A stretch of 64,000 nt of DNA from Enterococcus phage nattely: the sequence record MT119360.1. The stretch is one strand, 5' to 3'. Position 1 is the first letter of the stretch. Each line of letters starts with the position of its first letter. Below are positions 10,011 through 61,531 of this stretch, piece by piece. Below the pieces are notes generated by a model, which did no database searches, was not told the origin of the DNA, and saw only the letters and a program-made list of their open reading frames with translations. The translations under genes and the position numbers were made by a program.

Positions 10011-10048
10011 ATAAAAATAAACAATAGAAAGAAGAGATGTGTAAAATA

Positions 10049-10597
10049 ATGAATGTAGCAGTTTTTATGGGTTCAAGATTTGGAAAAAATAAAATGCACA
10101 AAATTAATGCTAAAAAATTAGGAAAAATTTTAGCATTAAATGATCATATGTTAATTTATGGTGGTTCTGTTTCAGGATTAATGGGAACAGTAGCAAAATC
10201 TGTTAAAAAATATGATGGAAAAGTAACTGGCGTTTATCCAAAAGGCCATTTTGAAGATGAGAAACCACTTTATGATATTGACTTTTTTATTGAAGTTGAC
10301 AATATGGATGATCGTAAGAGAAAATTGATTGATTTAGCGGATGCTTATGTAATTTTACCTGGCGGAACAGGTACACTTGAGGAATTCGCACAATTACTTT
10401 GTGAAATGATGATTAATATAACTCCATGGAGACCAATTTTTATCCTTAATGAAGATGGTTTCTACAATGGATTAGCTTCACAATTATATACTTTTATTCA
10501 CGAAGGCTTTAGTTATGAAAATGAAAAATTAGCTAAAAATATTTTCATTTGTGATACAGTTGATATTTTACAAGAAAAAATTGAGGGATTATCATGA
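10049..10597 (+). CDS. LOG-family protein (nucleotide 5'-monophosphate N-glycosidase/phosphoribohydrolase-like)
   Basis: YGGSVSGLMG ... ILPGGTGTLEE (PGGxGTxxE signature). Confidence 0.65.
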   Translation: MNVAVFMGSRFGKNKMHKINAKKLGKILALNDHMLIYGGSVSGLMGTVAKSVKKYDGKVTGVYPKGHFEDEKPLYDIDFFIEVDNMDDRKRKLIDLADAYVILPGGTGTLEEFAQLLCEMMINITPWRPIFILNEDGFYNGLASQLYTFIHEGFSYENEKLAKNIFICDTVDILQEKIEGLS

Positions 10598-10782
10598 AAC
10601 AAATTTTAAATGATAGAAAAATACATGTTGAAAGATCATTGTCATTTTTAACCAATATCATACAAATTTATAAAAATAAAGATGATAATGAATCAAAAGA
10701 AAAATTTAAAATTGTAAAATCTTTAATTAAATCATATCAAAAAGAATTAAAAGAAATTAATAGAAAACTGGAGGAAGATTAA
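10594..10782 (+). CDS. Hypothetical protein
   Basis: ORF overlapping the upstream stop by 4 nt. Confidence 0.4.
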   Translation: MKQILNDRKIHVERSLSFLTNIIQIYKNKDDNESKEKFKIVKSLIKSYQKELKEINRKLEED

Positions 10783-10783
10783 G

Positions 10784-11416
10784 TTGACATTATTAGAAAA
10801 AGGTCAAAAAGTTTTTGTAAAAAATAGTTTTAATGGTGGTAAAGAGAAAATTGGTCAAATTGTAGAAATTGATGATCAAGATTCAGAAATGCCATATTTT
10901 GTGCAATATAATGATGGAACAAAATATTGGGAATATGTAGACGAAGTTGAATTATACGATCCACGGCGGAACGTGTATTTAGCCGGACCATTCTTCAGCG
11001 AAAATCAAATTAATATTGTTAATGAACTCCATGGAGCATTAAATGAAAACAAAACTATTAAAAGTGTTTTTGTTCCAATGGAACACCAAATGAATGACGG
11101 AGAATTAGAAGAATTTACAGCTCCTTGGGCTCGAGCAGTTGCAATGAATGATTATGAAAATGTTCGAAATGCAGATATTGTAGTTGCAATTGTCGATTTT
11201 GATGGTCAAGATATGGATAGTGGAACTGCAGCAGAAATTGGATACGCATATGCTATTGGAAAACCAGTTTTCTTGTTTCATAAAGAAAACCACGAAATTA
11301 TGGTTAATTTAATGGTAACAGAGGTTGCTCAAGCATATTTCACAGAATTACAGCAAGTAAAAGATTATAACTTCACTTCTCAGGAAAAAGTTCCTTTCTC
11401 AGGAAATTATCGTTAA
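10784..11416 (+). CDS. Nucleoside 2-deoxyribosyltransferase family protein (NDT / DNPH1-like), with an N-terminal SH3/KOW-like domain
   Basis: YLAGPFF and DSGTAAEIGYAYAIGKPV signatures. TTG start after RBS GGAGGAAG. Confidence 0.6.
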   Translation: MTLLEKGQKVFVKNSFNGGKEKIGQIVEIDDQDSEMPYFVQYNDGTKYWEYVDEVELYDPRRNVYLAGPFFSENQINIVNELHGALNENKTIKSVFVPMEHQMNDGELEEFTAPWARAVAMNDYENVRNADIVVAIVDFDGQDMDSGTAAEIGYAYAIGKPVFLFHKENHEIMVNLMVTEVAQAYFTELQQVKDYNFTSQEKVPFSGNYR

Positions 11417-11433
11417 AAATTAAAAAATATTTG

Positions 11434-11472
11434 CTCCATGGAGTTTACAAAATTCCATGGAGTTGATATAAT
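11434..11472 (+). promoter_or_regulatory. Promoter with two CCATGGAG copies: CTCCATGGAG-TTTACA(11444-11449)-aaatTCCATGGAGttga-TATAAT(11467-11472)
   Basis: Read directly. One palindrome abuts the -35 and a second lies in the spacer. Confidence 0.55.
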
Positions 11473-11506
11473 ATAATTAAATAAATGATTGAAAGAGAGG
11501 AAACTA

Positions 11507-12343
11507 ATGTTGATTACAGCAGCTGGGAAAATTGGAGCTGGAAAAAGTACAATCACTAAATTATTATCAGATGTACTTGAAACAAAAGCAGTATATGAAC
11601 CAATTGAAGAAAATCCACTATTAGAAAAATTTTATGAAGATCGTGGAAAATATGGATTTGTATTTCAAATTGATATGATTAGTCGTCGATTTGAATTAAT
11701 TCAACAAGCACTAATGAAAGATAATTCAGTATTAGATCGTTCTATTTTAGAAGATTCAATTTTTCTTGATCAGTTACATTATGAAGGTTATGTAAATGAT
11801 TTTGAATGGGAAGCATATCATAAATTATTAGATAGAATGATGAAAGAATTAGCGTGTTTACCTAAAAAATTACCAGATTTATTAGTTTATATTGATGTTG
11901 ATTTTGAAACAGAAATTGAACATATTAATAAGCGAGCACGTGAATTTGAAAAAGTAAATAAAGGTGACGAATTATATGAATATTTCAAATTACATTCACA
12001 ATTTTATGATGAATGGATTGAAAATTTTGATTTAACACCTGTTATTAGAATTGATGCAAAACAATATGACTTTGCTAATAATAAAGAAGATCAACAAGAA
12101 GTTTTAGCTCAAATCGTGGCGAAATTAGTTGAAATTCGTGCACTAACATTTAATGAAGCAGTTTTAGCATATTGTAATATTTATGAAGCACAACCAAAAG
12201 ATGTAGCAATTAAATTGTATAATAAAGTGCAAACCCTAATGAATGGCATGCTTGAATACCATAATTTAGCTTTATTATATGATGAAAAATTAGATACAGT
12301 TGAAAAACTGAAAAAACGTATTAAAAACCAAAATAAAAAATAG
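11507..12343 (+). CDS. Deoxynucleoside kinase (dCK/dGK family)
   Basis: P-loop AAGKIGAGKST, YEPIEEN, and DRSILEDSIF (ERS-like) motifs. ATG at 11507 after RBS GAGAGGAAA. Confidence 0.75.
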   Translation: MLITAAGKIGAGKSTITKLLSDVLETKAVYEPIEENPLLEKFYEDRGKYGFVFQIDMISRRFELIQQALMKDNSVLDRSILEDSIFLDQLHYEGYVNDFEWEAYHKLLDRMMKELACLPKKLPDLLVYIDVDFETEIEHINKRAREFEKVNKGDELYEYFKLHSQFYDEWIENFDLTPVIRIDAKQYDFANNKEDQQEVLAQIVAKLVEIRALTFNEAVLAYCNIYEAQPKDVAIKLYNKVQTLMNGMLEYHNLALLYDEKLDTVEKLKKRIKNQNKK

Positions 12344-12364
12344 AAGAAAGTAGGAATTTATTTT

Positions 12365-13120
12365 ATGTTTGCAGCTTTAAAAGGAATTACGAAAAAAGAG
12401 ATTTTAGGAAATATTAAAGAATTATTCACATTACAATATTATAAAGAAGGATTAAGCGGCTGGATGCCAATCACAAAAATTGCATGGTTAATTGGTTTTG
12501 CGATTATCGTTGGTACAGGTGTTCCCCATGGATTCGCAATTACAAATATTATCTCGATTGTTTCAGGATTAATTGGATATACATGTGTTTTAGCAATTAC
12601 TAATGGTAAACGTATTAATGGTTTACTTGGTTTTATTTCAGCAGTTGGTATTGGTGGTATGGCAATTCATGCTGGTAACCCTGCAGATGCTGTTATGCAA
12701 TTAGCATATTTGTTAGCGTTGGATATTCCAGTAATTATCTTTGGTCACCGTTGGACTGCAGCTAAAATCAAAACTTTCGATTTTAATGCTCTAAAAATTA
12801 TTTTAGTAATTGGAATTATTGGTTTTGGATTAATGTACTCAATGGATGCATTTTGGTTACACACTCCACGGCCAATGTTGGATGCATTCGGTGCGACAAT
12901 CGGTTTCATTGGTTCTGGATTAATGTTAGCAAAATATTCAACACAATATTTCTTCTGGAATTTCCAAGGTATTATGAGTTTATTACTATGGGGTGTTACT
13001 GCATACCATGGAGATGCCAACTGGGTATTGTTCGCAACATACGCAATGTATTTAATGAATTCAATGATTGGAGCATTTCATTCTCCATGGGCTGAAGCTC
13101 GTAAAAATAAACATAAATAA
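12365..13120 (+). CDS. pnuC: PnuC-like nucleoside/nicotinamide riboside transporter (7-8 TM)
   Basis: Polytopic membrane protein of about 250 aa. Pattern ISIVSGLIGYTCVLAITNGKRINGL resembles the PnuC core. Lies in the nucleoside-salvage cluster. Confidence 0.45.
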   Translation: MFAALKGITKKEILGNIKELFTLQYYKEGLSGWMPITKIAWLIGFAIIVGTGVPHGFAITNIISIVSGLIGYTCVLAITNGKRINGLLGFISAVGIGGMAIHAGNPADAVMQLAYLLALDIPVIIFGHRWTAAKIKTFDFNALKIILVIGIIGFGLMYSMDAFWLHTPRPMLDAFGATIGFIGSGLMLAKYSTQYFFWNFQGIMSLLLWGVTAYHGDANWVLFATYAMYLMNSMIGAFHSPWAEARKNKHK

Positions 13121-29699: not shown

Positions 29700-29776
29700 T
29701 GTAAAAAAACTATTTACAAAGTCTCATTTTTTATGTATAATAAATATATAATAAATAAACGAATAGAGGTAAGAAA
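29700..29776 (+). promoter_or_regulatory. Terminator hairpin (ATGAGACTTTGTAAA...TTTACAAAGTCTCAT) fused to a class-B promoter and conserved leader
   Basis: Read directly. Confidence 0.55.
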
Positions 29777-29911: not shown

Positions 29912-29977
29912 CTGTTTACAAAACATAAAAGTTAATGTATAATAAATATATAATAAATAAACAAAAGAAAGTAGGAA
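29912..29977 (+). promoter_or_regulatory. Class-B promoter plus leader (CTGTTTACAAAA...AATGTATAATAAATATATAATAAATAAACAAAAGAAAGTAGGAAATGACA)
   Basis: Identical arrangement to 8739-8815. Confidence 0.55.
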
Positions 29978-30350: not shown

Positions 30351-30551
30351 ATGAAAGAAAAATTAGAATCAGGAATGGCAGTAATGGTTAATGTGGACGA
30401 TGGTCAAACTTTAATCAAGGATAAAATTGGAATTATTACAGAAGTTTTTCCTCAAAAATATACAGCATTAACTGGTTTTCATTATGAAGTTTCACTTTTA
30501 AATTGTGGAACTGTTGTTAGATGTAATAAAAAAGAAATTAAGAAAATGTAG
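30351..30551 (+). CDS. Hypothetical small protein
   Basis: ORF with RBS GGGAGGAAA. Confidence 0.5.
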   Translation: MKEKLESGMAVMVNVDDGQTLIKDKIGIITEVFPQKYTALTGFHYEVSLLNCGTVVRCNKKEIKKM

Positions 30552-30622
30552 ACCGATAGGTTTACATTTTCACTATTTATTGATATAATATATTTATAAA
30601 ATAAATTAAATTGGAGGTATTT

Positions 30623-31138
30623 ATGAATTTAGTTATTGAGGGTCCTAAAGCAAGTGGAAAAAGCACAATTTCTCACCACTTTATTGAAAAATATTTAACG
30701 ACATATGACCATATGAGCTCCGATAGCGATAACTCATTAAAAGGACATTTAAATTTATTAAAAGGCAAAAAAGGTGAATCATTAAATCATGTAATAGATC
30801 GTTTTTCAGTTGGGGAAATGATTTATCCTAATTTATATGGCCGTGAAGGAAAATTAAATTTAGATGAGTTTAATGTCACAATGAGTTCAGAAAACACATT
30901 ATACGTTATTCTTTATTCTTCGTCTGATCAATTATTATTTGATCGAATTGAATGGAGAGGAAGAAACACTGATGATGAAGATCATGATTTAGTGTCAAAA
31001 TCAAATTTTGCATTTAAAATGATTGGTGAATCATTGAAATATCGTGAAAATGTATTATTATTTGATGTTGCAAAAGTAGGATTAAAAGAAATTATTAAAA
31101 TAATTGAAGATAAATTGGAGGAGTTAAACAGATGTTAA
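30623..31138 (+). CDS. Thymidylate-kinase-like dNMP kinase (candidate hm-dCMP/dTMP kinase)
   Basis: P-loop VIEGPKASGKST. DRF motif (VIDRFSVGEMIYPNLYG) corresponds to the TMPK DRY/DRF motif. RBS GGAGG. 7-nt overlap with the next gene. Confidence 0.5.
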   Translation: MNLVIEGPKASGKSTISHHFIEKYLTTYDHMSSDSDNSLKGHLNLLKGKKGESLNHVIDRFSVGEMIYPNLYGREGKLNLDEFNVTMSSENTLYVILYSSSDQLLFDRIEWRGRNTDDEDHDLVSKSNFAFKMIGESLKYRENVLLFDVAKVGLKEIIKIIEDKLEELNRC

Positions 31139-31977
31139 AATTTAAAAATGTAAATGATGCATGGATTCATTTGGCAAAAAATGTCGTTTATAAAGGTGAT
31201 GTTGTTGGAAATACAAAAGAATTAACAAATGTATCATTCCAAATTGAAAATCCATTAGATAACATTGTAAAAAGCCGTCACAATTTTTCATTAACATATT
31301 ATTTAGGTGAAACTGTATGGTATGGTGCTGGTAAAGACGATGTTGAATTTATTAGTAAATTTGGCCGTATTTGGAATCATTTAACAGATAATGGAATTTA
31401 TAACAATAGTGCTTATGGTTATATCTTAAAAAATAAGCATGGTTTTGACCAAATCGAAAAAGCAATTGAATTATTACGTGGAGATCAATATAGCCGACGA
31501 GCAGTGTTAAATATTAATATTCCACGGCGTGATGTTATTGAAACAAAAGATGAAATGTGCACAATTGCATTACAGTTTTTAATTCGCGATGGAAAATTAA
31601 ATATGACTGGAATTATGCGTTCAAATGATTTATGGACTGGTACTCCATATGATATTTTTTATTTCACAACATTACAACGATATGTTGCATATAAATTAAA
31701 TATTGATATGGGAACATATACGCATTTTGCAACTTCTTTACATTGTTATTTACGTGATGAAGAAAAATTAATTAAATCTTTTGAAAATGATGCAAATAAT
31801 ATTTATGCTGGTATCGATATTAATGGAATGCGTTTATTATTACAAGCTGAAGAATTATATTATACAACACGTAAAGAAGAAAATGCAAAATTAGAATTAG
31901 TTAAATTATGTAAAGAACGTAATATTATTAAAGGAAAAGAAGTTGAAAAAACTATTGAAAAACTATCTGCTATTTAG
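31132..31977 (+). CDS. Deoxycytidylate 5-hydroxymethyltransferase (ThyA family; T4 gp42-like)
   Basis: ThyA-fold motifs SRRAVL, DEMCTIALQFLIRDGKLN and IMRSNDLWTGTPYDIF. MCT, LIRD and MRSND match T4 dCMP hydroxymethylase rather than ThyA. Asp in GTPYD replaces the ThyA Asn of the PFNI motif that dictates uracil specificity. Confidence 0.65.
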   Translation: MLKFKNVNDAWIHLAKNVVYKGDVVGNTKELTNVSFQIENPLDNIVKSRHNFSLTYYLGETVWYGAGKDDVEFISKFGRIWNHLTDNGIYNNSAYGYILKNKHGFDQIEKAIELLRGDQYSRRAVLNINIPRRDVIETKDEMCTIALQFLIRDGKLNMTGIMRSNDLWTGTPYDIFYFTTLQRYVAYKLNIDMGTYTHFATSLHCYLRDEEKLIKSFENDANNIYAGIDINGMRLLLQAEELYYTTRKEENAKLELVKLCKERNIIKGKEVEKTIEKLSAI

Positions 31978-32005
31978 CAGATAGTTTGTATAAAGGAGAA
32001 GAGTT

Positions 32006-32422
32006 ATGAAAATTAAAATTAATATGTTTAGTGATGAAGAAATTTATCAACCAAAAAGAGCACATTATAATGACGCAGGAGCCGATGTTCGCTCAACAGA
32101 AGAAATGTTAATTTGGCCAGGAGAAACTCGAAAAATTCCACTAGGTTTTGGATTAGAATTACCAGATGGATATATGGGAGTTATGATGAGTCGTTCAGGA
32201 TTAGCTTCAAAAGGATTAGTTTCACAAAATGCACCGGTTGATTCTGGATATAAAGGTCAAGTTCACGCAATTATGACAAATGTATCAGATGAAGTTATTA
32301 AAATTGAAAAATATGATAGAATCGCACAATTAGTAATTATTCCAGTTATGGTTGCAGATTTTGTCACAGAAACAGGTAGTGAAAGAACCAGTGATGGTTT
32401 TGGAAGTACAGGTTTAAAATAG
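32006..32422 (+). CDS. dut: Trimeric dUTPase-family dNTP pyrophosphatase (dUTPase and/or dCTPase)
   Basis: All five dUTPase motifs are present: AGADV, SRSGLA, PVDSGYKGQV, RIAQL and RTSDGFGSTG. Confidence 0.8.
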   Translation: MKIKINMFSDEEIYQPKRAHYNDAGADVRSTEEMLIWPGETRKIPLGFGLELPDGYMGVMMSRSGLASKGLVSQNAPVDSGYKGQVHAIMTNVSDEVIKIEKYDRIAQLVIIPVMVADFVTETGSERTSDGFGSTGLK

Positions 32423-32431
32423 GAGGATTAT

Positions 32432-33490
32432 ATGGAAATTTTATTATTGAATGTCGCAAATAACATTACGGATTTTCGAACAGTATCAAGTGGGGAAACA
32501 GTTTATCTAAAACAAATGTTAGAACAGTTAGGCCATGGAGTTACAATTGCTTCAAATAAGAATGGTGAATATGCGGTTGCATTTGAGGAAATTGAGGATA
32601 TTAACAATTTTGACAAAGTAGTTGTTTTACCTGCTTCACTGAACTTTTTCGGTGGTGTAGAAAACCCGACAATTATTAAAAATTATAAATTATTAGCAAA
32701 ATATAATGGAACTATTAATATTTTGCAAACTGACGCACGTTTGCCATTTAAGCAGTTGTGGCCAGCAATTGAGAAGCGGGGATGGGGATATAAAAAAGAA
32801 GAAGTTTGGATTAATGCCCCAATTAAAGTAATTGCACAATCAAAAAATTTAGATGAAGTTAAAACACAATATGAAAAAGAAATTTTCAATAACATTGAGT
32901 TTACACATTTTCCAATTGAGCGTTATGCTGGCATTGTGGCGCTAATGAATCCAATTGATGAAGTCGAAGAAAAAGAACATGATTTAGTTTATTATGGTTC
33001 ATTCCGTGGAGGCAATCGTGCTGCTAAAATGGCAGAATTTTTATGTGGAAACATTGTAGAAAAATTAGATGTCCACGTATTTGGAACAATTCGAGAAAAA
33101 CAATTAGCTAAAAGTAGCGATGGTCCATTTCCTTCGTTTGGTAAAAAGATGAAAATGAATGAAATTAGACAAGAGGTTAGCAAAAGTTTCTCAACTTTAA
33201 TTATTGGTGAAAAATTTTATAATAATGCAATGTTGACAGTGAGGGTTTGGGAAACATTAAGTAGCGACGCAGTAGTTCTCATTGACAACGATTTTGACTC
33301 TTACCATAATTTATTTCCTAATTCGCCATGGCGGTATGTTGAAAAAGAAGAAGATCTTATCGAAGTAGTAAAATCTCTTAAAGATGATGAAAATAAGAGA
33401 AAATTAGCGATTCAAGAGCAAAAAGAAGTGTTAGAAAAAATGATTGATTCTTCTCAATGGTTAAGAGATTTTGAAAATATTTTAGCTTAA
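32432..33490 (+). CDS. bgt: DNA beta-glucosyltransferase (T4 BGT homologue)
   Basis: Collinear similarity over about 350 aa to T4 beta-glucosyltransferase as recalled: MEILLLNVANNITDFRTVSSGETVYL, NFFGG, DARLPFKQLWP, APIKVIAQSKNLD, EFTHFPIERY, YYGSFRGGNRAAKMAEFL, VFGTIREKQL, LIIGEKFYNNAMLTVRVWETLSSDAVVLIDNDFD. Same length (352 vs 351 aa). Confidence 0.7.
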   Translation: MEILLLNVANNITDFRTVSSGETVYLKQMLEQLGHGVTIASNKNGEYAVAFEEIEDINNFDKVVVLPASLNFFGGVENPTIIKNYKLLAKYNGTINILQTDARLPFKQLWPAIEKRGWGYKKEEVWINAPIKVIAQSKNLDEVKTQYEKEIFNNIEFTHFPIERYAGIVALMNPIDEVEEKEHDLVYYGSFRGGNRAAKMAEFLCGNIVEKLDVHVFGTIREKQLAKSSDGPFPSFGKKMKMNEIRQEVSKSFSTLIIGEKFYNNAMLTVRVWETLSSDAVVLIDNDFDSYHNLFPNSPWRYVEKEEDLIEVVKSLKDDENKRKLAIQEQKEVLEKMIDSSQWLRDFENILA

Positions 33491-33522
33491 CGGTTTACGT
33501 TAAGCTTTTTTTATGATATAAT
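33484..33522 (+). terminator. Fused terminator-promoter unit (AGCTTAACG-gttta-CGTTAAGCT, T-run, TATAAT 33517-33522)
   Basis: Perfect 9-bp stem that includes the upstream stop codon. TTTACg -35 in the loop. 17-nt spacer. Confidence 0.65.
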
Positions 33523-33561
33523 ATAACTATAAATAAATTAGAAAGAAATGGAGAGAAATTT

Positions 33562-34086
33562 ATGACGGTTCAGTTTAAAGCGAAAGGACATGAAGATAAC
33601 ATTATTCACTTATATTCAGATGGTGGTTGTCGGTCAACTGCTAAAAAAGGTGAAACTATAAAAGAAACAGATAAAAGTGCTTATGCATTCTTCTTAAAAC
33701 AAGGTGGAAATGAAAAATTAGATGGGCAAGCAAGTTATGGTAAAACAAATAATAATCAAGAAATTATGGGATTATTAATGGGCTTACGCGCTATTAAACG
33801 CCCAGAATTTCCAGTTGTTGCATATTTAGATTCAGCTTATGTTGTTAACTGTTTACAAGCTGGCTGGTGGAAGAAGTGGAAAGCTAATGGATGGACGAAA
33901 AAAGGTGGATTAGCAAATGCTAAAGAATGGAAAGAATTAATTGAAGAATTAGAACGTTTTCCATTTTTTAGAATTGAAAAAGTTAAAGGACACAGTGGCT
34001 TTGCAGATTATAATGATTTAGTTGATAAACACTTAAATAAATTAATGGATGAATTACCTGAAATTGGAAAGGGAAATGTTTTATGA
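33562..34086 (+). CDS. rnhA: Ribonuclease HI
   Basis: LYSDGGC, EIMGLLMGL, LDSAYVVNCL, W-x-x-WKANGW and VKGHSGFADYNDLVD motifs. Confidence 0.75.
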   Translation: MTVQFKAKGHEDNIIHLYSDGGCRSTAKKGETIKETDKSAYAFFLKQGGNEKLDGQASYGKTNNNQEIMGLLMGLRAIKRPEFPVVAYLDSAYVVNCLQAGWWKKWKANGWTKKGGLANAKEWKELIEELERFPFFRIEKVKGHSGFADYNDLVDKHLNKLMDELPEIGKGNVL

Positions 34087-35045
34087 TATATTATGGAGAG
34101 CCATATTTTGAACTATTTTCATATGAGGCGACTGATAAAGCAAGAAATGACACTTGTAAAATATTAAACTCCATGGGGTATTCACCTTTAAAATTATCTT
34201 GTTTTTCAGACGTGAACATTGAGAAAGCTGATGAAGAATTAGCTAACATTGAGGAAAATGACATAATTCTCTTACAATATCCAACTTACAGTGGAGCAGA
34301 TTATGAAAAGAGATTAATTGAAATTTCTCATAAGAAAAAAGCAAAAATCTGTGCAATTGTTCACGACTTAGAATCAATAAGATTCTATGGAAATGATAGT
34401 GACATTGAGATTTTGAATGGTTTCGATATTATATCTCTTCCCTCCATGGAGATGTATAAAAAACTCTTAAAACAAGGACTAAAAACAAAAGTAAAGATAC
34501 AGTTAATTTGGGATTTTCTCGCCATGGATAATCAACAATGGTATGATACAAATTCGGACATTGTCTTTGCTGGAAATTTAACAATGGAAAAGAGTAAATG
34601 GATAATGGATGTAGATTTTCCTATGTTGGTGTATGGCGACAATATAAATAATTTAATTTTTAATGATGATGTAAAATATTGTGGTAAAAAGAATGATTTG
34701 GAATTAGTAAAAGAAATTGGTGGACAAATTGGATTATTATGGGAAGAAGGATTATATAAAGATTATTTAAAATATAATTTATCGTTTAAGCCTTCTTTAT
34801 ATCTTGCAGCAAATTGTCCGATTATTGTTCCAGAAAAAACCCATATTGGAAATATTGTAAAAACATACAAAATAGGCGTAACTGTTAAAGATATTAAAAG
34901 ACAAACAATGTTGGATGCTGTTATTAAATTAAAAGATAATTTAAACTTTTATCAAGAACGTGTTTCAACATTTGGAGAAACAATTAGAAATGGGCAAAAT
35001 ATGAAAACGTTAGTTGAAAGTATGGTGAGAGAAATTGAAAATTGA
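34083..35045 (+). CDS. Hypothetical protein (320 aa) adjacent to the glucosyltransferase; candidate second sugar-transferase
   Basis: No recognisable motif. Position within the modification module only. Confidence 0.4.
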   Translation: MIYYGEPYFELFSYEATDKARNDTCKILNSMGYSPLKLSCFSDVNIEKADEELANIEENDIILLQYPTYSGADYEKRLIEISHKKKAKICAIVHDLESIRFYGNDSDIEILNGFDIISLPSMEMYKKLLKQGLKTKVKIQLIWDFLAMDNQQWYDTNSDIVFAGNLTMEKSKWIMDVDFPMLVYGDNINNLIFNDDVKYCGKKNDLELVKEIGGQIGLLWEEGLYKDYLKYNLSFKPSLYLAANCPIIVPEKTHIGNIVKTYKIGVTVKDIKRQTMLDAVIKLKDNLNFYQERVSTFGETIRNGQNMKTLVESMVREIEN

Positions 35046-35292
35046 AATGTATGTTTTTGATAAAGTTGAGGTCGATTATGAAAATTTCACTAATACTGAA
35101 TATGGAGAACAATGCAAAATTTATCGATTCTCGCTAGTTGGGTTAAATTCAGAAATAAAATCAAAAATTTATTCAATTAAATTTAGAAAATTATTAAAAT
35201 ATCAATGGTATGTTGATTTACAAATTTGGATTATGAAAATGAGAAAGAAAACATTTGTGCAAAATGTATTAGGAAGGGAATACTATGGATGA
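35035..35292 (+). CDS. Hypothetical protein
   Basis: ORF. Confidence 0.4.
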   Translation: MKIEMYVFDKVEVDYENFTNTEYGEQCKIYRFSLVGLNSEIKSKIYSIKFRKLLKYQWYVDLQIWIMKMRKKTFVQNVLGREYYG

Positions 35293-35577: not shown

Positions 35578-36186
35578 ATGGCAAAATTTACATTTATGTA
35601 TGGAACTATGAAAAGCGGAAAAAGTATGGAGTTAATTAAAACTTATACAAATTATTTAGTAAAAGATCAAAAACCATTGGTGTTAAAAAGTGCAATTGAT
35701 ACACGTGACTCCAATACAGTTGCTACACGACTAGGCTCTGCAATTACATGTCAGCTATTAGGACAAAATCAAAATATTGCAGATTTTTTACAACAAGATG
35801 GTCGTAATAATCCTCCTGTTATTTTGATTGATGAAGCACAATTTTTAACAAAATCACAAGTTATCGAATGTGGTGTTCTAGTTGATACGCAAAATATTGA
35901 TGTAATATGCTTTGGTTTGAAAACTGATTTTACTAATCATTTATTCGAAGGAAGTAAAGCTTTAATTGAAGAAGCTGATAAATTAGTGGAAATTAAAACA
36001 TTATGCGCTTTTTGTAATAAAAAAGCAACCCATAATTTATTAACTGAATTAAGAGAAGATGGTTATCGTTATGCTGTTGATTCAGAAAATGTTGATGGAA
36101 ATATTGTGATTGGTGATGAAGACTTTTTCCAATGCTGCAGAAAACATTATTATTTTTATGGAACTCAAACAAGGAAAGTGCAATAA
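35578..36186 (+). CDS. tdk: Thymidine kinase (TK1 type)
   Basis: GTMKSGKSMEL P-loop, ILIDEAQFL, and C-terminal zinc ribbon CAFCNKK...CC. RBS AAAGGAGAA. Confidence 0.8.
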   Translation: MAKFTFMYGTMKSGKSMELIKTYTNYLVKDQKPLVLKSAIDTRDSNTVATRLGSAITCQLLGQNQNIADFLQQDGRNNPPVILIDEAQFLTKSQVIECGVLVDTQNIDVICFGLKTDFTNHLFEGSKALIEEADKLVEIKTLCAFCNKKATHNLLTELREDGYRYAVDSENVDGNIVIGDEDFFQCCRKHYYFYGTQTRKVQ

Positions 36187-36656: not shown

Positions 36657-36756
36657 AAAATGTAAAAAAACTGTTTACAAACAGATCTGCTTAGTGTATA
36701 ATATATTTATAGTTAATAAACAAACTAAAATATTTTAACAAGAAAGAGGTAGTATT

Positions 36757-36959: not shown

Positions 36960-36994
36960 AGACTGTTTACAAAACAGTCTTTTTTTGATATAAT
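36960..36994 (+). terminator. Fused terminator-promoter unit (AGACTGT-ttacaaa-ACAGTCT, T-run, TATAAT 36989-36994)
   Basis: TTTACA at 36966-36971 is in the loop. 17-nt spacer. Confidence 0.65.
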
Positions 36995-37027: not shown

Positions 37028-40000
37028 ATGAGTTGGTTTAGTATTCACAATCATTCGCATTTTAGTAATTTTCGTTTAAGAGATGCAACCAATGCGCCAC
37101 AAGATATTTTAAGAGTCGCAAATGAAAAGGGATTGAAAGGAATTGTATTATCAGATCACGAGACTATTGCGGGTGCACCTACATTTTTAGATAATGCTAA
37201 AAAAATGAAAGAAGAAGGTAAATTACCAGAAGATTTTGTTGCAGCAATTGGTAATGAAGCATATTTAATTGATCGTAAATATGAGGAACCAATGAAAAAC
37301 CAAGAAAAAGTTAGATATTTTCATTTTTTAATGGTAGCAAAAAATCAACGTGGTTTTGAATTTTTGAAAAAACAAACAGCTAAAGCATGGGAAAATAGCA
37401 CATACTCAAGAGGTATGGAACGTGTTCCAACATTTAAAGATGATTTACAAGAATTAATGAAAGAATATAAAGGTGATGTAATTGCATCAACTGCGTGTAT
37501 TGGTGGCGAACTTCCGCAATTAATCCTTAAGTTAGAAGAATTTCAAAAATCAGGTGATGCGTTACGTATTGAAACAACAAAACGAGAGATACATTATTTC
37601 ATTCAATTTTTAGTTGAAACTTTTGGCCACGATAATGTATTTTTTGAATTACAACCATCAAAACAAAATGAACAATTGATTGTCAACAAATGGTTACCAA
37701 AAATTGCAAAAGCGTATAATATCAAATGTATCGTCACAACAGATGCTCACTATCTTACATTAGAACAGCAAGAATTTCATAAACAATATTTACAGGCATC
37801 TGAAGGTGAGCGTGAAGTTGAATCTTTTTATGCAACAACATATATTTTCTCATATGATGAATTATTGGAATATTTCGATAAAGAATTATTAGATGAATTA
37901 TGTGAAAACACATTGATTATTCGTGATATGGTTAATAATGAATTAAAATATAAACATGAGACAGTTATTCCACGATCACATATTCCACATTTTGAACAAG
38001 ATGAAAATGTGATGCAAAAAATTGATGAGACAAAATATCCGAACATTTATAAGATGATGAGATCTTCGGTTATTGAAGATAGATATTATCATTTTAAAGT
38101 TATGAAAGGTTTTGTTGAAAAAGAACAAGAATTTAATGATGAAAATTTAAGTAGAATTGATTTAGAATATAGTGAACTTCAAGCAATTAGTGAACAATTA
38201 AATCAACCGATGACGTCGTACTTTTTGGCAATGACAGAATTTGTTGATATTATGTGGGAATATTCATTAGTTGGGGTTGGACGTGGTTCTGCAGTATGTT
38301 ATTATACAAATTATTTATTAGATATTGTTCAATTAAATCCAATTAAATATGATTTACCATATTGGAGATTTTTATCTCGTGAATATGTTGGAGAATTTCC
38401 AGATATTGACGTTGATGCTCAAGGTAGTGAACGTGCAAATATTATTGAAGGTGTAAAAGAAAAATTTGGACATGAAAATGTGTTAAATATTGGAACTTAC
38501 ACAACTGAGGGACCTCGAGCAGCATCATTAACCGCATGTCGTGCATTCGGTTTAGATCCGGATACAGCACAAAATATCACAAATGCAATTCCGAGTGACA
38601 AGGGGTTCGCTTGGCCATTACAAGACGCATTTTTCGGAAATGAAAAAGAACACAGAAAACCAGATAAGCAATTTATTTATATGGTAAATGAATATCCAGG
38701 ACTGCAGGAGTTAATGTTACAATCTCAAGGTTTAGTAAGTGGACGTGGACAACATGCTTCAGGTGTTGTTGTTTTTCCAGACGGATATACTTCTTTAAAC
38801 ACAATGATGAAGACAAGTAAAGGGTTGCCAATCACTCAGTGGGATGCACATACAACTGAGGTCGCTGGTGGAATTAAATATGACTTTTTATCAATTAATG
38901 CACTAGATAGAATTAGAGCCGCAATTGATATGTTGTTAAAAGATGGTAAAATTGAATGGCAAGGATCATTACAAGAAACTTTCAATAAATATTTTCACCC
39001 GGACGTTTTAGATATGGAAAGTCAAGAAATGTTTGATATGCTATTTAATGGAGAAATTATTTCAGCTTTTCAGTTTGAAGCAAAAACAGGTAGACAAGCA
39101 TTAGAAAAAATTAATGCGCGTACATTCGATCAATTAGTTGCTGCAAATTCATTAATGCGTTTATCTTCAGATGGAGAACAGCCAATTGATAAATACATTC
39201 GTTATAAAAATGATTTAAACGAATGGGAAAAAGATATGGACGAATATAATTTAACTGAAGATGAAAAAGCAGTTATGCACGAATTATTAGATAAAAAATT
39301 TGGTGTGTGTGAAGTTCAAGAATCAATTATGAAAATTGCAATGCATGAAAAAGTAGCAAAATATAATTTGAGAGAAGCAAAAGGATTACGTAAAGCTTCA
39401 GCGAAAAAAGACCCAACAATTCAAGTTAAACAAAAAGAATTATTCTTTAAAAAAGGTAGAGAAAATGGAACTAGTGATAATTTATTAAATTATATTTGGA
39501 ATGAATGTTATGTTCCAACATTTGGTTATTCATTTTCAGAACCTCACGTAGCAGCATATACAATGATTTTAATGATTGAAATGAATATTGCTTATAGATA
39601 TGGGGTTCATTATTGGAAAGCAGCATGTTTGAATGTTGATGCGGGAATTATCGGAGAACTTGAAGCGGGGACAAAATACGGTAAAGTCGCAAAAGCATTA
39701 TCAAATTTCCGAGAAGATGTTATTCCACCGTCAGTTAATAAAAGCGATATTGGTTTTACACCGGATCAAAATACAGGCAAAATTATGTATGGATTAAAAC
39801 CAATTGTTGGTATGAATAGTAAATTAGCAAAACAAATTATTGAAGGTCGTCCATATAAAAATATGCAACATTTTATTGATCATAATGTTATAAATGGTGA
39901 TTTAACAAATACAAAAATGGTAACATTAATTAAAAGTGGATTATTTGATGAATTATATCCAAATAGGAAACAATTAATGGTAAATTTTGTTATGTATGTA

Positions 40001-40882
40001 GAACCATTTAAACAAAAATTGTCAACTTCAGTGATTCCAAAAATTGCACATTTAATTCCAGATAAATATAAAGATGCAAAAGAAGCATATTTCTTTTTGA
40101 AAGAAATTAAAAGTAAAAAAGTTCATGATGAATATACGGAATATTTCTTTAATAATTTTAAAGAAGATTGTGATAAAAAAGTAACTAAAAAATATCCAGA
40201 ATCATATACCTATAATGATAATGGGAATTTTATAATTGAAATTAAAGTTTTAGAAAAAGTTGTAAAAGATAGAATGGAAAAATTAAAAGAATGGTTACAA
40301 ACAGAAGACGCACTAAAAGCTGAAGCTTCACTAAGAAGAAGTGCATATTGGCAAAAATATTGTTTAGGAACAATATCTCACTGGGAAATGGAATCAATCA
40401 CATTCTATATTTCACAACATGAGTTAGAAGAATATCCAATTCATTCATTTTTCGAATTATCTAATTTCAATGAATTACCGAGAGAGCCAGAAGTTGATGG
40501 TTGGAATAATGGACGTGGTGGTAAAAAATGGCCAAAATATAAAAGTCATGTAATTGCGGGAACGGTAATTGACACACTTCCACAAAAAGGTATAGTTACT
40601 TTAATCACCAAAGACGGTGTTGTTGATGTTCGTGTTGGAAAAGGAAAATATCAATATTATAATAAAAAGATCATGATTGGACAAGGTAAAGAACGTGTTA
40701 ATATTGATGATACATGGTGGAAACGCGGAAATATGGTAGTTGTTGTTGGTTACCGTAGAGAAAATGATTTTTATGCTAATGCAAAAAATAGTGCATATCA
40801 ACATTCAGTTATGTTAATTAAAGGACATGATGGAGAAAAAATATTTTTACAACAAGAAAAAAGAAAAGTTGAAGAAGATTAA
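37028..40882 (+). CDS. dnaE: DNA polymerase III alpha subunit-like replicative polymerase (DnaE type, N-terminal PHP domain)
   Basis: PHP motifs (HNHSHFS, LSDHETIAG). Palm region GRGSAVCYYTNYLLDIVQLNPIKYDLPYWRFLSRE...PDIDVD matches the DnaE catalytic core. 1284 aa. Confidence 0.85.
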   Translation: MSWFSIHNHSHFSNFRLRDATNAPQDILRVANEKGLKGIVLSDHETIAGAPTFLDNAKKMKEEGKLPEDFVAAIGNEAYLIDRKYEEPMKNQEKVRYFHFLMVAKNQRGFEFLKKQTAKAWENSTYSRGMERVPTFKDDLQELMKEYKGDVIASTACIGGELPQLILKLEEFQKSGDALRIETTKREIHYFIQFLVETFGHDNVFFELQPSKQNEQLIVNKWLPKIAKAYNIKCIVTTDAHYLTLEQQEFHKQYLQASEGEREVESFYATTYIFSYDELLEYFDKELLDELCENTLIIRDMVNNELKYKHETVIPRSHIPHFEQDENVMQKIDETKYPNIYKMMRSSVIEDRYYHFKVMKGFVEKEQEFNDENLSRIDLEYSELQAISEQLNQPMTSYFLAMTEFVDIMWEYSLVGVGRGSAVCYYTNYLLDIVQLNPIKYDLPYWRFLSREYVGEFPDIDVDAQGSERANIIEGVKEKFGHENVLNIGTYTTEGPRAASLTACRAFGLDPDTAQNITNAIPSDKGFAWPLQDAFFGNEKEHRKPDKQFIYMVNEYPGLQELMLQSQGLVSGRGQHASGVVVFPDGYTSLNTMMKTSKGLPITQWDAHTTEVAGGIKYDFLSINALDRIRAAIDMLLKDGKIEWQGSLQETFNKYFHPDVLDMESQEMFDMLFNGEIISAFQFEAKTGRQALEKINARTFDQLVAANSLMRLSSDGEQPIDKYIRYKNDLNEWEKDMDEYNLTEDEKAVMHELLDKKFGVCEVQESIMKIAMHEKVAKYNLREAKGLRKASAKKDPTIQVKQKELFFKKGRENGTSDNLLNYIWNECYVPTFGYSFSEPHVAAYTMILMIEMNIAYRYGVHYWKAACLNVDAGIIGELEAGTKYGKVAKALSNFREDVIPPSVNKSDIGFTPDQNTGKIMYGLKPIVGMNSKLAKQIIEGRPYKNMQHFIDHNVINGDLTNTKMVTLIKSGLFDELYPNRKQLMVNFVMYVEPFKQKLSTSVIPKIAHLIPDKYKDAKEAYFFLKEIKSKKVHDEYTEYFFNNFKEDCDKKVTKKYPESYTYNDNGNFIIEIKVLEKVVKDRMEKLKEWLQTEDALKAEASLRRSAYWQKYCLGTISHWEMESITFYISQHELEEYPIHSFFELSNFNELPREPEVDGWNNGRGGKKWPKYKSHVIAGTVIDTLPQKGIVTLITKDGVVDVRVGKGKYQYYNKKIMIGQGKERVNIDDTWWKRGNMVVVVGYRRENDFYANAKNSAYQHSVMLIKGHDGEKIFLQQEKRKVEED

Positions 40883-43688: not shown

Positions 43689-43910
43689 ATGACATTTGAT
43701 GAAGCATTTGCAACAGTTTCTAAAAATCGTAATGTATATATGGCATTACCAACGTGGAAAGATGATGTAAAAATTTTCTGTCAATTTCCAGATGAAAAAA
43801 GCAAAATGACACATAAATATTTATATGTGGATTCGCGTTTTGGTCGCGTACCATGGTTACCGACCCAAGTTGAATTATTTAGTGATAAATGGAAGGTGGC
43901 AGCAATCTAA
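43689..43910 (+). CDS. Hypothetical small protein
   Basis: Promoter at 43630-43665. RBS AGAGAGTGA. Confidence 0.5.
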   Translation: MTFDEAFATVSKNRNVYMALPTWKDDVKIFCQFPDEKSKMTHKYLYVDSRFGRVPWLPTQVELFSDKWKVAAI

Positions 43911-44611
43911 TGGAAAGAAAATTTGAAAAAGTAAGTGGATATGAAGATGTAAATATCCCATTAAGAGCGACTCGTTTTTCGGCCGGTTACGATTTTGAAG
44001 CGGCGGAAGATATTACAATTCCTTCGTTGGTGATTGGAATTGACCAATACACAGAAAATATCAAACGAAAAATTGATGCAACAGATGATGTATCTATCAC
44101 TGAAGATCAATTTGAAAAACTTAATAATATTAATAGTGAATTTGAAGATAATTCAATTTACACTCAAGCTGATGAAAAAAATTATTTGGACGTATTAACA
44201 ATTATGAATGATATTTTAGATGAAGATGTGGATGCTGATACTGTTTTAGACCATTTGAATCAATTTAAAAATACATTCAAACCAACTTTAGTTCCAACTG
44301 GTATTAAAGCAAAAATGCCAAGTGATGAAATGTTATTATTATATAATCGTTCTTCAAATCCATTAAAACGTTTCTTGTTTTTAGCAAATGGTGTTGGAGT
44401 TATTGACAGTGATTATTATAATAATGAAGGAAATGAAGGTCACATTATGTTCCAATTTATTAATTTAGGTCCCACACCGATCACTATTAAAAAAGGTGAA
44501 CGAATTGGCCAAGGAATTTTCCAAAAGTTCTTATTAACGACAGATGTTGAAATTACACAAGACGTTGAACGAACTGGTGGTTTTGGTTCGACTAATAAGG
44601 AGGAACAATAA
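43910..44611 (+). CDS. Second dUTPase-family protein carrying a roughly 100-aa acidic insertion (dCTP/dUTP pyrophosphatase or deaminase-like)
   Basis: Motifs ATRFSAGYDF, ANGVGVIDSDYYNNEGNEGHI, GERIGQG and RTGGFGST, with a long D/E-rich insert between motifs II and III. TAATG overlap with the upstream gene. Confidence 0.6.
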   Translation: MERKFEKVSGYEDVNIPLRATRFSAGYDFEAAEDITIPSLVIGIDQYTENIKRKIDATDDVSITEDQFEKLNNINSEFEDNSIYTQADEKNYLDVLTIMNDILDEDVDADTVLDHLNQFKNTFKPTLVPTGIKAKMPSDEMLLLYNRSSNPLKRFLFLANGVGVIDSDYYNNEGNEGHIMFQFINLGPTPITIKKGERIGQGIFQKFLLTTDVEITQDVERTGGFGSTNKEEQ

Positions 44612-44904
44612 TGGAACGTAAAGTTATTCATGTGTTTTATGACAAAAATCATACAACAGACTTAGCTGTCTTGAATGTTATTGAAGAAATTGAAAGCAAA
44701 TTTGATTCAAAATTAAATTTAATTATTCAACCATTAGAAGTTGAGCAAGATATTGTTATGACAAATGCATATGGTATTCCTTTATCTTTTGAAGGTGTTT
44801 ATATTATTGTATTAGATAAAGATAATAATCAAGAGCAATGTATTCATGCAAAAACAAAAATTCAAGCTTTATCTAAATTGAAAGGAACGAGCGTTTATAA
44901 ATGA
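44611..44904 (+). CDS. Hypothetical protein
   Basis: ORF with TAATG overlap. Confidence 0.45.
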   Translation: MERKVIHVFYDKNHTTDLAVLNVIEEIESKFDSKLNLIIQPLEVEQDIVMTNAYGIPLSFEGVYIIVLDKDNNQEQCIHAKTKIQALSKLKGTSVYK

Positions 44905-45527
44905 AATTGACTAAGCCAATATTTGTTCTTGCTGGAAAAACACTTTCTGGTAAGACAACATTATTAAATTATTTAATTGATGAATGCCATATGAATAATC
45001 ATAAAAAAGTAGAAAAAGTTGTAACAATCACGACACGCCCCAAACGCCCGGGCGAAATGGATGGCAAAGATTATTACTTTATTACTAATGATCAATTTGA
45101 TAAAATGGTAAAAGAAAATAAGATTATTGCTCCACGGGAATACCATGTTGCGACAGGAGAAGTGTGGAAATATGGAATTGAAAAAGGTTTTGAAAATGAA
45201 TATGAAATTCCAGTTGTTGTAACAGATGTTCAAGGAATTAAAGATTTGAAAAAAGAATTTGGAGCACATAATGTAATTGTATTTTATAAAGAAATTTCAA
45301 CTATTTTACAATTAAAAAGAGCGATGAGTCGCAAAGAAAATAGTCGTGACGAACAAATTCGTCGCATTATCTCAGATGATGAAGATTTTAAACATATTTG
45401 GGAATGGGCAGATTATATTCTAGATGATGAAGAAAGTAATATGCCTGATGATGCTGGTTTTATGTTAAATCAAGTGGATTATGAAATTGACCAATTCAAT
45501 GATCCTGACCGTGACATTTATATCTAA
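44901..45527 (+). CDS. gmk: Guanylate-kinase-like nucleoside monophosphate kinase
   Basis: P-loop VLAGKTLSGKTT and TTRPKRPGEMDGKDYYFIT, matching the GMP-kinase signature. Confidence 0.6.
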   Translation: MKLTKPIFVLAGKTLSGKTTLLNYLIDECHMNNHKKVEKVVTITTRPKRPGEMDGKDYYFITNDQFDKMVKENKIIAPREYHVATGEVWKYGIEKGFENEYEIPVVVTDVQGIKDLKKEFGAHNVIVFYKEISTILQLKRAMSRKENSRDEQIRRIISDDEDFKHIWEWADYILDDEESNMPDDAGFMLNQVDYEIDQFNDPDRDIYI

Positions 45528-57829: not shown

Positions 57830-58036
57830 ATGCAAGAAAATTACAAATACGCAGTGAACATCTTAAATGCAAAACACGAAAGTGATAGAGAATGGTTACA
57901 AAAATTATTTGATGAATCAATTCCTAAAACAAAAACTATTTTTGAATTTGATACAGAAGAAGAAGCTGATGAGTTTGAAAAGAAATTAAATAAAGATGGA
58001 CATAAAACTTTTAGAAATAGAATCATTCATTTTTAA
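57830..58036 (+). CDS. Hypothetical small protein
   Basis: RBS ATGAGGAATA. Confidence 0.5.
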   Translation: MQENYKYAVNILNAKHESDREWLQKLFDESIPKTKTIFEFDTEEEADEFEKKLNKDGHKTFRNRIIHF

Positions 58037-58119
58037 AAATATTTACAAAATGTTCTCACTATGATATAATATTATCATAGTGAGATATAAATAAAAAAAA
58101 AAGAAAAGAGGAACATATA

Positions 58120-58281
58120 ATGAATAAATTAATTTTAGTAGTGGGATTATTAGTAGCTTGGTTTTTTGTAGTAACAAACGTTACATTATCTTCTCAATTT
58201 TTACAAACGCTTATGGTTGGAACTTTAACAGTTTTTATTGGTATTTTAGAAATTGGAGTTTTAGTTGGAGGTAAAAAATAA
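58120..58281 (+). CDS. Small membrane protein (53 aa, 2 TM)
   Basis: Promoter at 58040-58080. RBS AAAAGAGGAAC. TAATG overlap with the next gene. Not in the ORF track. Confidence 0.35.
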   Translation: MNKLILVVGLLVAWFFVVTNVTLSSQFLQTLMVGTLTVFIGILEIGVLVGGKK

Positions 58282-58841: not shown

Positions 58842-58885
58842 AAAAAATAGGAGCCAATCGGTTAAGATTGACTCCTATTTTTATT
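58840..58885. terminator. Bidirectional rho-independent terminator at the convergence point (A8-ATAGGAG..CAATC-ggttaa-GATTG..CTCCTAT-T5)
   Basis: Hairpin flanked by an A-run upstream and a T-run downstream, lying between convergent genes. Confidence 0.65.
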
Positions 58886-59861: not shown

Positions 59862-59890
59862 ATCAATTTCTCCATTCTTTATTAAATATA

Positions 59891-59920: not shown

Positions 59921-59928
59921 TTTTACAA

Positions 59929-61517: not shown

Positions 61518-61531
61518 ACAAAATTCCTCCT

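Follow-up and report, generated by a model that had tools for sequence, protein, structure and literature searches.

The question raised by the genes considered here is whether, and by what route, a phage of a Gram-positive host replaces the cytosine of its DNA with a sugar-bearing base in the manner of coliphage T4. The genes lie at positions 30623-35045 of a 64,000-nucleotide stretch of DNA from Enterococcus phage nattely (record MT119360.1; the whole stretch is referred to as the window), where a tight run of six genes on the + strand encodes, in order, a kinase, a ThyA-family enzyme, a dUTPase, a homologue of the T4 DNA beta-glucosyltransferase (BGT), an RNase H and a 320-aa glycosyltransferase. 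The reading that we favour, with a probability of about 0.85, is that this cluster is a hypermodification module by which cytosine is replaced with glycosylated 5-hydroxymethylcytosine (hmC). An initial annotation, made from the sequence alone, had described the cluster as a complete T4-type pathway for glucosylated hmC, and its core, viz. a deoxycytidylate (dCMP) hydroxymethylase and a T4-type BGT yielding glucosylated hmC in a Gram-positive siphophage, is borne out by every sequence test that was run and by published experiments on near-identical phages. However, the view that such a system is unusual or new in a Gram-positive phage does not hold, as cytosine glycosylation was shown experimentally in 2016 and the genes are already annotated; the finding of glycosylated hmC is correct, but it was already known for near-identical phages from work published in 2016 and 2021. 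What is new here is a corrected pathway, in which the gene labelled 'thymidylate synthase' would encode a MilA-like synthase of 5-hydroxymethyl-dCMP (5hm-dCMP) and the modified base would be synthesised ahead of replication and not through methylation and oxidation, together with the observation that the core seems to stay constant among sister phages while the sugar cassette is swapped.

The identity of the ThyA homologue (31132-31977) is central to this reading. The protein matches the Pfam model PF00303 (7e-21), and it scores below the cut-off of all seven NCBIfam thymidylate-synthase models (best 89.8 bits, against a cut-off of 174.55). In PDB its closest sequence match is MilA (5b6d/5jnh; 9e-26), the CMP hydroxymethylase that acts in mildiomycin biosynthesis, whereas the T4 dCMP hydroxymethylase, gp42, is matched at only 4e-8. 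MilA is also the top fold match (TM-score 0.76) of an AlphaFold2 model of the protein (pLDDT 94), ahead of the T4 enzyme and the thymidylate synthases, and the likeness includes a C-terminal helical extension. In the sequence alignment the catalytic Cys is C143, corresponding to C146 of E. coli ThyA (Ec) and C148 of the T4 enzyme, and the diagnostic residues are D140 (at Ec L143), D166 (at Ec D169) and D174 (at Ec N177); the same Asp/Asp/Asp pattern at Ec 143/169/177 is present in T4 gp42 and in MilA. According to Lee et al. (NAR 2026; PMC13326640), an Asp at Ec N177 (D179 in T4) denotes a cytosine substrate, and an acidic residue at Ec L143, which is related to water access, denotes a hydroxymethyl product. 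The phage enzyme differs from MilA in one respect: the preference of MilA for CMP is due to Ala176 and Lys133 (PMC5175136), whereas in place of this Ala/Lys pair the phage protein has the deoxy-preferring Ser/Arg pair of the dCMP/dUMP enzymes (Ser164 in the motif MRSND, Arg122/Arg123 in YSRRAV). The family to which it belongs is large in metagenomes (863 matches at E up to 1e-10), and C143, D166 and D174 are invariant in 63 aligned members. Based on the diagnostic residues, the closest structures and the invariance of the catalytic Cys and the specificity Asp, the most likely product of this enzyme is 5hm-dCMP, and in all records of this group the gene is probably mislabelled as 'thymidylate synthase' in GenBank. 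The profile searches and the structure prediction that the initial annotation had proposed as checks place the protein outside canonical ThyA, with Asp and not Asn at Ec 177, in agreement with its naming as a dCMP hydroxymethylase. However, the description of the module as T4-type holds only in part, as it is true of the BGT but not of the ThyA homologue, which resembles MilA far more than it does T4 gp42.

The BGT homologue matches PF09198 (T4-Gluco-transf) at 2e-61, with 207 bits against a cut-off of 27, phrog_7922 at 2e-98 and PDB entry 1bgt at E 8e-74 across residues 1-347 of 352; its pairwise identity to T4 BGT is 42%, and the proposal that the 352-aa protein is a homologue of this enzyme, with similarity to family GT63, is fully upheld by these end-to-end matches. 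Residues E22, D100, S189, R191, R195, Y261, R269 and E272 of the T4 enzyme are matched in the window by E22, D101, S190, R192, R196, Y263, R271 and E274. We take T4 D100 to be the catalytic base and the others to be involved in the binding of UDP-glucose; PDB entry 1nzd, as seen in the printed alignment, is the wild-type protein except for an Ala at the D100 position. The family is nearly confined, among cultured phages, to T4-like myophages, the exceptions being seven Enterococcus, one Lactobacillus and one uncultured phage record, and a library of 1.84 billion representative proteins yields just 266 matching clusters at E up to 0.001. The close homology, the conserved active site and the enzyme-sensitivity data from relatives described below provide strong support for the predicted glucosylation of hmC in DNA by this protein.

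The gene preceding that for the hydroxymethylase encodes a kinase, which matches phrog_761 (thymidylate kinase) at 1e-6 and does not reach the Pfam and NCBIfam models; a search with its sequence against the solved structures in PDB gave no match. The AlphaFold2 model of this protein, built on 13 homologues (pLDDT 88.7), has as its best Foldseek match YorR of B. subtilis SPbeta (TM-score 0.8), and the matches to deoxynucleoside kinases and thymidylate kinases have E-values of 1e-6 to 1e-7. As judged from this model, the protein is a member of the thymidylate-kinase/deoxynucleoside-kinase P-loop fold, and a divergent one, since the Pfam and NCBIfam models are not reached; the thymidylate-kinase-like enzyme with a DRF motif that the initial annotation had recognised is in line with these fold matches. 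The P-loop, the DRF motif and the lid arginines are invariant in the 13 homologues. They are also kept in three metagenomic proteins in which a homologous kinase domain, 33-36% identical to the window kinase, is located N-terminally and fused to a hydroxymethylase. Due to this gene fusion there is good evidence that the kinase and the hydroxymethylase act in one pathway, and we predict with moderate confidence that the kinase acts on 5hm-dCMP.

The dUTPase of the module is identified by Pfam (1e-22) and by NCBIfam model NF001862 (score 106.6, cut-off 103). Residues around the AGADV, RSG, VDSGYKGQ, RIAQLV and GFGSTG blocks are conserved with respect to E. coli Dut; this motif comparison provides no handle on specificity for dCTP versus dUTP. 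Hence, of the earlier proposal for the third gene, the family is confirmed, but the removal of dCTP was only a guess. In the related contexts that were examined, the hydroxymethylase is accompanied by a dUTPase gene in all cases except one metagenomic contig (L019). The window also contains a second gene of the trimeric dUTPase family (43889-44611), whose 240-aa product has an insertion of ~100 residues before the conserved core; it is located two genes upstream of a guanylate-kinase-like gene (44901-45527; 208 aa), with an open reading frame (ORF) of 97 aa in between. It is unusual for a phage to have two such paralogues, and the missing dCTPase could be one of the two.

The near relatives of phage nattely provide the experimental evidence that bears on this reading. 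In a megablast search with region 30600-35100, ten Enterococcus phage records were matched, of which vB_EfaS_140 is the closest (97.9%), while VPE25, VFW, vipetofem and vB_EfKM29 show ~91% identity; these relatives are ~86-kb siphophages of the subfamily Andrewesvirinae, genus Vipetofemvirus. VPE25, VFW and vB_EfaS_140 share the same gene order with the window and 91-98% DNA identity over this region. The cytosines of VPE25 and VFW were reported by Duerkop et al. (2016, mBio; PMC4999554) to resist bisulfite conversion, and their DNA is resistant to EcoRI and MspI and is a substrate of PvuRts1I, an enzyme that these authors describe as able to cleave glucosyl-hmC DNA (PMC4999554). The same work reported a BGT ~40% identical to that of T4, with the sugar described only as 'likely glucose', and a second ORF, 'nucleotide sugar synthetase-like', whose product shares 28% identity with a beta-1,6-galactofuranosyltransferase and might modify the DNA further (PMC4999554). 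For vB_EfaS_140, it was reported in 2021 that the DNA is refractory to several restriction enzymes and that a BGT gene is present (PMC7820071). The GenBank records of the relatives already include the annotations 'b-gt beta glucosyl transferase', 'nucleotide sugar synthetase-like protein', 'thymidylate synthase' and dUTPase, the BGT and the 'nucleotide sugar synthetase-like' gene both being annotated in those of VPE25, VFW and vB_EfKM29. However, the hydroxymethylase was not identified in either publication (PMC4999554, PMC7820071), the gene being annotated as thymidylate synthase, and the 2016 paper derives the hmC of VPE25 and VFW from 5-methylcytosine by hydroxylation (PMC4999554). The gene content does not support such a route: in the annotation of the complete relative vB_EfKM29 there is neither a cytosine methyltransferase nor a TET-type dioxygenase, and this, together with the presence of a ThyA-type hydroxymethylase, points to pre-replicative synthesis of the base.

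The published phenotypes of VPE25 fit the module described here, and most of its proteins are nearly identical to those of the window, viz. the kinase (94.7%), dUTPase (98.6%), BGT (98.6%), RNase H (98.9%), the 320-aa glycosyltransferase (95.0%) and the thymidine kinase (100%). The hydroxymethylase, in contrast, is a local hotspot of divergence, with only 75% protein identity to the VPE25 allele (contig L001, 6533-7378), a pattern suggesting that this one enzyme has been subject to allele exchange or diversifying selection.

The pathway that we propose would operate in two stages. In the first stage, the ThyA-family enzyme would convert dCMP and methylene-tetrahydrofolate to 5hm-dCMP, a step for which the diagnostic residues, the closest structures and the cytosine protection in relatives argue strongly, and the adjacent P-loop kinase would, with moderate confidence, form the diphosphate. 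A host NDP kinase would then produce the triphosphate, and the DnaE-type polymerase of the phage would incorporate it; these two steps are those of the established T4-type pathway. In the second stage, on the polymer, the BGT would move glucose from UDP-glucose to the hydroxymethyl group, and the 320-aa transferase may attach a further sugar, for which O6 of the glucose is by analogy the most likely site, although this last step is speculative, with roughly even odds. The dUTPase would keep uracil out of the DNA and supply dUMP. The expected outcome is DNA that is left uncut by most restriction enzymes, as experimentally shown for the sister phages. The order kinase, hydroxymethylase, dUTPase, BGT, RNase H and 320-aa transferase is also that of a relative with a BGT of only 60% identity.

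The resemblance of this scheme to T4 lies in the pre-replicative formation of 5hm-dCMP by a ThyA homologue followed by post-replicative glucosylation, in the BGT, a true homologue whose active-site residues are kept, and in the fact that the hydroxymethylase and BGT genes are neighbours in both. However, only the BGT is closely related to its T4 counterpart. The kinase of the window is of the thymidylate-kinase/deoxynucleoside-kinase type and not gp1-like, the dNTPase is a trimeric dUTPase with no gp56 homologue present, and the module lacks an alpha-glucosyltransferase (AGT), having instead a candidate second transferase that is without a homologue among the Straboviridae records. Since glycosylated hmC blocks most restriction enzymes, it complicates the sequencing, cloning and genome editing of phages under development against vancomycin-resistant enterococci (VRE).

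In relatives, the core of kinase, hydroxymethylase and dUTPase is conserved and the sugar genes vary. One example of this is provided by the sister genus Denvervirus (phage 9183, NC_055907.1, L006 5404-11935; also L009 6482-13533), in which the core and the pair of genes for RNase H and the 320-aa transferase are kept, and the slot of the BGT is taken by three genes, whose products are a HAD phosphatase (114 aa), a bifunctional nucleotidyltransferase-kinase (544 aa) and a transferase-like protein (406 aa). Over 85% of its length, the bifunctional protein shows ~25% identity to proteins of RB69-like coliphages and Acinetobacter myophages (E ~1e-14), and RB69 itself gives a partial match to ORF052c/053c (E 3e-7); it belongs with the AfhE-like proteins (RB69/DLP type) of the AfhE/AfhF route to UDP-arabinose. 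The Denvervirus ThyA homologue has the hydroxymethylase signature (Asp at Ec 169) and not that of a 5-hydroxylase, from which it is predicted that Denvervirus DNA would carry pentosyl (arabinosyl?) hmC, a description of which was not found. The cassette includes no arabinose-5-phosphate isomerase, and the 406-aa protein, considered as a possible relative of BGT, showed no similarity to it.

Other combinations are seen in metagenomic sequences. In L019 (4177-7376) and L020 (816-4054), both contigs from ENA metagenomes, a BGT homologue with 48% identity is followed by two genes, one encoding a 355-aa protein and the other a UDP-galactopyranose mutase that scores 376 bits with TIGR00031 (cut-off 304), and this arrangement suggests that galactofuranose is added onto glucosyl-hmC in this phage; the 355-aa protein was compared with the 320-aa transferase of the window and no similarity was found. 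Another relative (L021/L022) has BGT alone and lacks the gene for the 320-aa protein. An unrelated small phage-like contig (Logan SRR24925836; L011, 7001-9930) encodes a 438-aa kinase-hydroxymethylase fusion with, immediately after it, a 414-aa member of the T4 AGT family (PF11440) and a 135-aa dUTPase, and it appears to follow the same pathway logic with AGT replacing BGT. Lastly, in ENA TONG22 scaffold_245 (L012, 6245-10353) a member of the hydroxymethylase family with the Asp/Asp/Asp pattern is located between a class I S-adenosylmethionine (SAM) methyltransferase and genes for SAM synthetase, LuxS and ThyX, with no glycosyltransferase nearby, and this locus may serve a different cytosine modification.

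The 320-aa protein encoded by the last gene of the run matches Gtf3 structures in PDB (3qkw/3rhz) at 8.5e-20 over residues 20-310, entry 9hu9 ('Glucosyltransferase 3') at 1.7e-19 and the GtfC-type entry 4w6q at 8e-15. In NCBIfam the models for the beta-1,6-galactofuranosyltransferase WbbI are matched at 1e-37, with 129.7 bits, so that the equivalog cut-off of 529 is not reached. The protein itself has no match in Pfam or PHROGs, and its orthologues carry Pfam Gtf3_N/Gtf3_C. As far as sequence comparison can tell, it is a member of the Gtf3/GtfC/WbbI family and not an equivalog, and the alignment with these enzymes is end-to-end. Gtf3 and GtfC function in the glycosylation of serine-rich-repeat adhesins, where Gtf3 puts glucose on protein-attached N-acetylglucosamine (GlcNAc) to give Glc1-6GlcNAc (PMC5207161). 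As Gtf3, GtfC and WbbI extend an already attached hexose, their chemistry fits the addition of a second sugar to glucosyl-hmC. However, the phage protein differs from them in being encoded in a DNA-modification operon, and no member of the family is known to act on DNA.

In a tblastn search of 50,697 phage records with this protein, homologues were limited to the Andrewesvirinae of Enterococcus, some Lactobacillus myophages and two contigs of uncultured phages from human faeces; no Straboviridae record was matched. The suggestion of the initial annotation that this protein could be a second sugar transferase is plausible in so far as it is a glycosyltransferase of the Gtf3 family, but it is unrelated to the T-even enzyme. 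The gene keeps its place in the relative, noted above, with the more distant BGT. In the record of vB_EfaS_140 (CAJCJZ010000002.1, 49072-50032), the gene is matched in two pieces lying under two 'hypothetical protein' features, whereas it is intact in the window, which suggests a frameshift or a sequencing error in that record. We consider the odds of a DNA role for this enzyme to be roughly even, somewhat better than not. The more specific proposal, viz. that it adds a second sugar to glucosyl-hmC to give a disaccharide-bearing cytosine, and that in this subfamily swappable glycan cassettes are placed on one 5hm-dCMP core, is put forward tentatively, as it falls somewhat short of an even chance. 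If it is true, a glycosyltransferase family not known before to act on DNA would be involved, and the cassettes on the common core would comprise BGT alone, BGT with the Gtf3-like enzyme, BGT with a galactofuranose route, and an arabinose-type cassette.

A number of observations weigh against the reading of the cluster as a module for glycosylated hmC, or against parts of it. In a tblastn comparison of the whole window with the T4 gp56 dCTPase/dUTPase and the T4 gp1 dNMP kinase, nothing better than E 0.6 was found, so that the two steps are either carried out by non-orthologous proteins or missing, and the 'complete pathway' of the initial annotation is too strong a statement. Due to the lack of a gp56-type dCTPase and the canonical appearance of the dUTPase of the module, the exclusion of dCTP is unexplained. 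The substrate of the kinase is deduced from fold, adjacency and gene fusion only. The digestion of VPE25 and VFW DNA by PvuRts1I was incomplete (PMC4999554), and in the searchable literature no mass-spectrometric nucleoside analysis was found for phages of this group, whose base and glycan are not chemically defined. Further, some relatives with otherwise conserved synteny lack the Gtf3-like gene, which persists in Denvervirus despite the different first-sugar cassette, and its acceptor might not be glucosyl-hmC at all.

The last of these points leads to the alternative that survives best, viz. that the Gtf3/WbbI-like enzyme acts on a protein or a cell-wall polymer and not on DNA, in which case each hmC would carry a single glucose. 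All of the characterised relatives of this enzyme act on glycoproteins or O-antigen, the gene is lacking in some syntenic relatives that have a BGT, and the retention of the protein in Denvervirus, at 48% identity and without a BGT, is odd if the first sugar must be recognised. However, in two genera as well as in metagenomic relatives the gene occupies the same slot of a nucleotide/DNA-modification operon, its occurrence in phages is limited to the few groups listed above, and the transfer of a sugar to O6 of an existing hexose, as carried out by this family, is the chemistry required for extending glucosyl-hmC. In addition, the slot after the BGT in one relative is filled by another putative transferase together with the UDP-galactopyranose mutase, which points to a second sugar on DNA there. 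On balance this alternative is a credible one, if not the outcome that we expect.

A different donor for the BGT homologue, such that the first sugar is a hexose other than glucose, is unlikely. Specificity could differ at 42% identity, and the sister-phage study had likewise gone no further than a probable glucose (PMC4999554). However, no genes for the synthesis of a sugar nucleotide are found beside the BGT, in contrast to the Denvervirus cassette. Further, the residues that we take to be the UDP-glucose contacts of T4 BGT are conserved, and UDP-glucose is retained as the donor in the pathway proposed here.

It is very unlikely that the ThyA homologue is a dCMP 5-hydroxylase whose product, 5-hydroxycytosine, carries an ether-linked sugar in the manner of RB69 and DLP3. 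5-Hydroxy-dCMP synthases do occur among the phage ThyA homologues that have Asp at Ec 177 and Asp/Glu at Ec 143, and the UDP-arabinose-type genes of the sister genus are known from such systems. However, the dCMP 5-hydroxylases newly found by Lee et al. are marked by D169N in Ec numbering (PMC13326640), and whereas all of the tested 5-hydroxy-dCMP synthases have Asn at this position, the phage protein has the Asp (D166) that is invariant in its family. The DNA of the sister phages is cut by PvuRts1I, which is cited as a cleaver of glucosyl-hmC (PMC4999554). The partner transferase also argues against a 5-hydroxylase, as it is closely homologous over its full length to T4 BGT, an enzyme acting on hmC. 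Lastly, the use of dUMP by the ThyA homologue, as a thymidylate synthase or as a dUMP hydroxymethylase, with the BGT modifying 5-hydroxymethyluracil or being unrelated to it, is also very unlikely, for although GenBank records label the gene thymidylate synthase and its nearest tblastn homologues in cultured phages outside Enterococcus include those of SPO1-like, ViI-like and M6-like phages (dUMP hydroxymethylases), the latter all have Asn at Ec 177 in the same alignment where the present protein has Asp at this pyrimidine-specificity position, its scores fall below every NCBIfam thymidylate-synthase cut-off and its best solved relative is a cytidylate hydroxymethylase, the bases protected in the sister phages are cytosines and not thymines, and the phage has a thymidine kinase for the supply of dTMP.

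The coordinates of the genes and of the putative regulatory sites are collected in Table 1. Every ORF named in the initial annotation was found on the + strand at the coordinates given there, and the motifs that it quoted are all present, viz. DRF in the kinase, MCT, LIRD, MRSND and GTPYD in the ThyA homologue, and NFFGG, DARLPF, PIKVI, FPIE, YGSFRGGNR, REKQ, LIIGEK and RVWET..SDAV.LID in the BGT. The profile and structure matches of the BGT, the ThyA homologue and the dUTPase lie well outside what chance would give. However, the 320-aa protein said to follow the BGT as an unknown, although it exists as an ORF, is separated from it by the overlooked RNase H gene and is not an orphan. The RNase H gene holds the same position in all relatives, among them VPE25, phage 9183 and metagenomic ones; the enzyme probably serves a replication function and is not a modification step.

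Table 1. Genes of the module, downstream replication and nucleotide genes, and promoter-like and terminator-like sites in the window
Feature	Position	Strand	Remarks
Terminator-like hairpin	30542-30571		Precedes the promoter-like site at 30561-30589
Promoter-like site TTTACA-17-TATAAT with TG	30561-30589	+	11/12 consensus, intergenic, just upstream of the kinase gene; putative function
P-loop (d)NMP kinase, 171 aa	30623-31138	+	Alternative start TTG 30611; ATG 30623 is the start annotated in VPE25
ThyA-superfamily enzyme, 281 aa, predicted dCMP 5-hydroxymethylase	31132-31977	+	Start overlaps the kinase stop by 7 nt
Trimeric dUTPase, 138 aa	32006-32422	+	Pfam and NCBIfam profile matches
DNA beta-glucosyltransferase (T4 BGT homologue), 352 aa	32432-33490	+	PF09198, phrog_7922, PDB 1bgt
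Terminator-like hairpin and T run	33484-33506	+	9-bp stem with 4 GC pairs, then TTTTTTT; overlaps the BGT stop; putative function
Promoter-like site TTTACG-17-TATAAT with TG	33494-33522	+	10/12 consensus, in the 71-nt gap between BGT and RNase H; putative function
RNase H, 174 aa	33562-34086	+	Pfam RNase_H 1.5e-17; phrog_531 1e-30
GT-B glycosyltransferase, Gtf3/GtfC/WbbI family, 320 aa	34083-35045	+	PDB Gtf3 and NCBIfam matches
Thymidine kinase	35578-36186		Downstream of the module
DnaE-type polymerase	37028-40882		Downstream of the module

The promoter-like and hairpin sites suggest that the module is divided into two transcription units. In the consensus scan from which the promoter-like sites derive, the number of sites over the whole region did not exceed that in shuffled sequences, and the list is limited to the best of the intergenic sites. 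One and the same hexamer pair, TTTACA-17-TATAAT, occurs in intergenic gaps at 29713-29741, 29915-29943, 30561-30589, 36674-36702 and 36966-36994, and its recurrence in the early/middle region probably marks a promoter class of the phage's own.

Elsewhere in the window, a nucleotide-salvage cluster (10037-13120) encodes a LOG/'lysine decarboxylase'-family protein, a nucleoside 2-deoxyribosyltransferase with a DUF1918-like N-terminal extension, a deoxynucleoside kinase and a membrane protein whose counterparts in relatives are annotated as PnuC-like transporters. The deoxyribosyltransferase homologue (10784-11416) was considered as a possible MilB-like hmCMP hydrolase; however, it matches true N-deoxyribosyltransferases at 2e-20 and MilB/BlsM at ~4e-3, and judging by these scores it is most likely a salvage enzyme. 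Near 58-60 kb both the GC skew and the AT skew switch sign, and the GC content rises to ~0.35 (window ~58000-64000), a change that fits a transition to the structural and lysis module, which is transcribed divergently in relatives.

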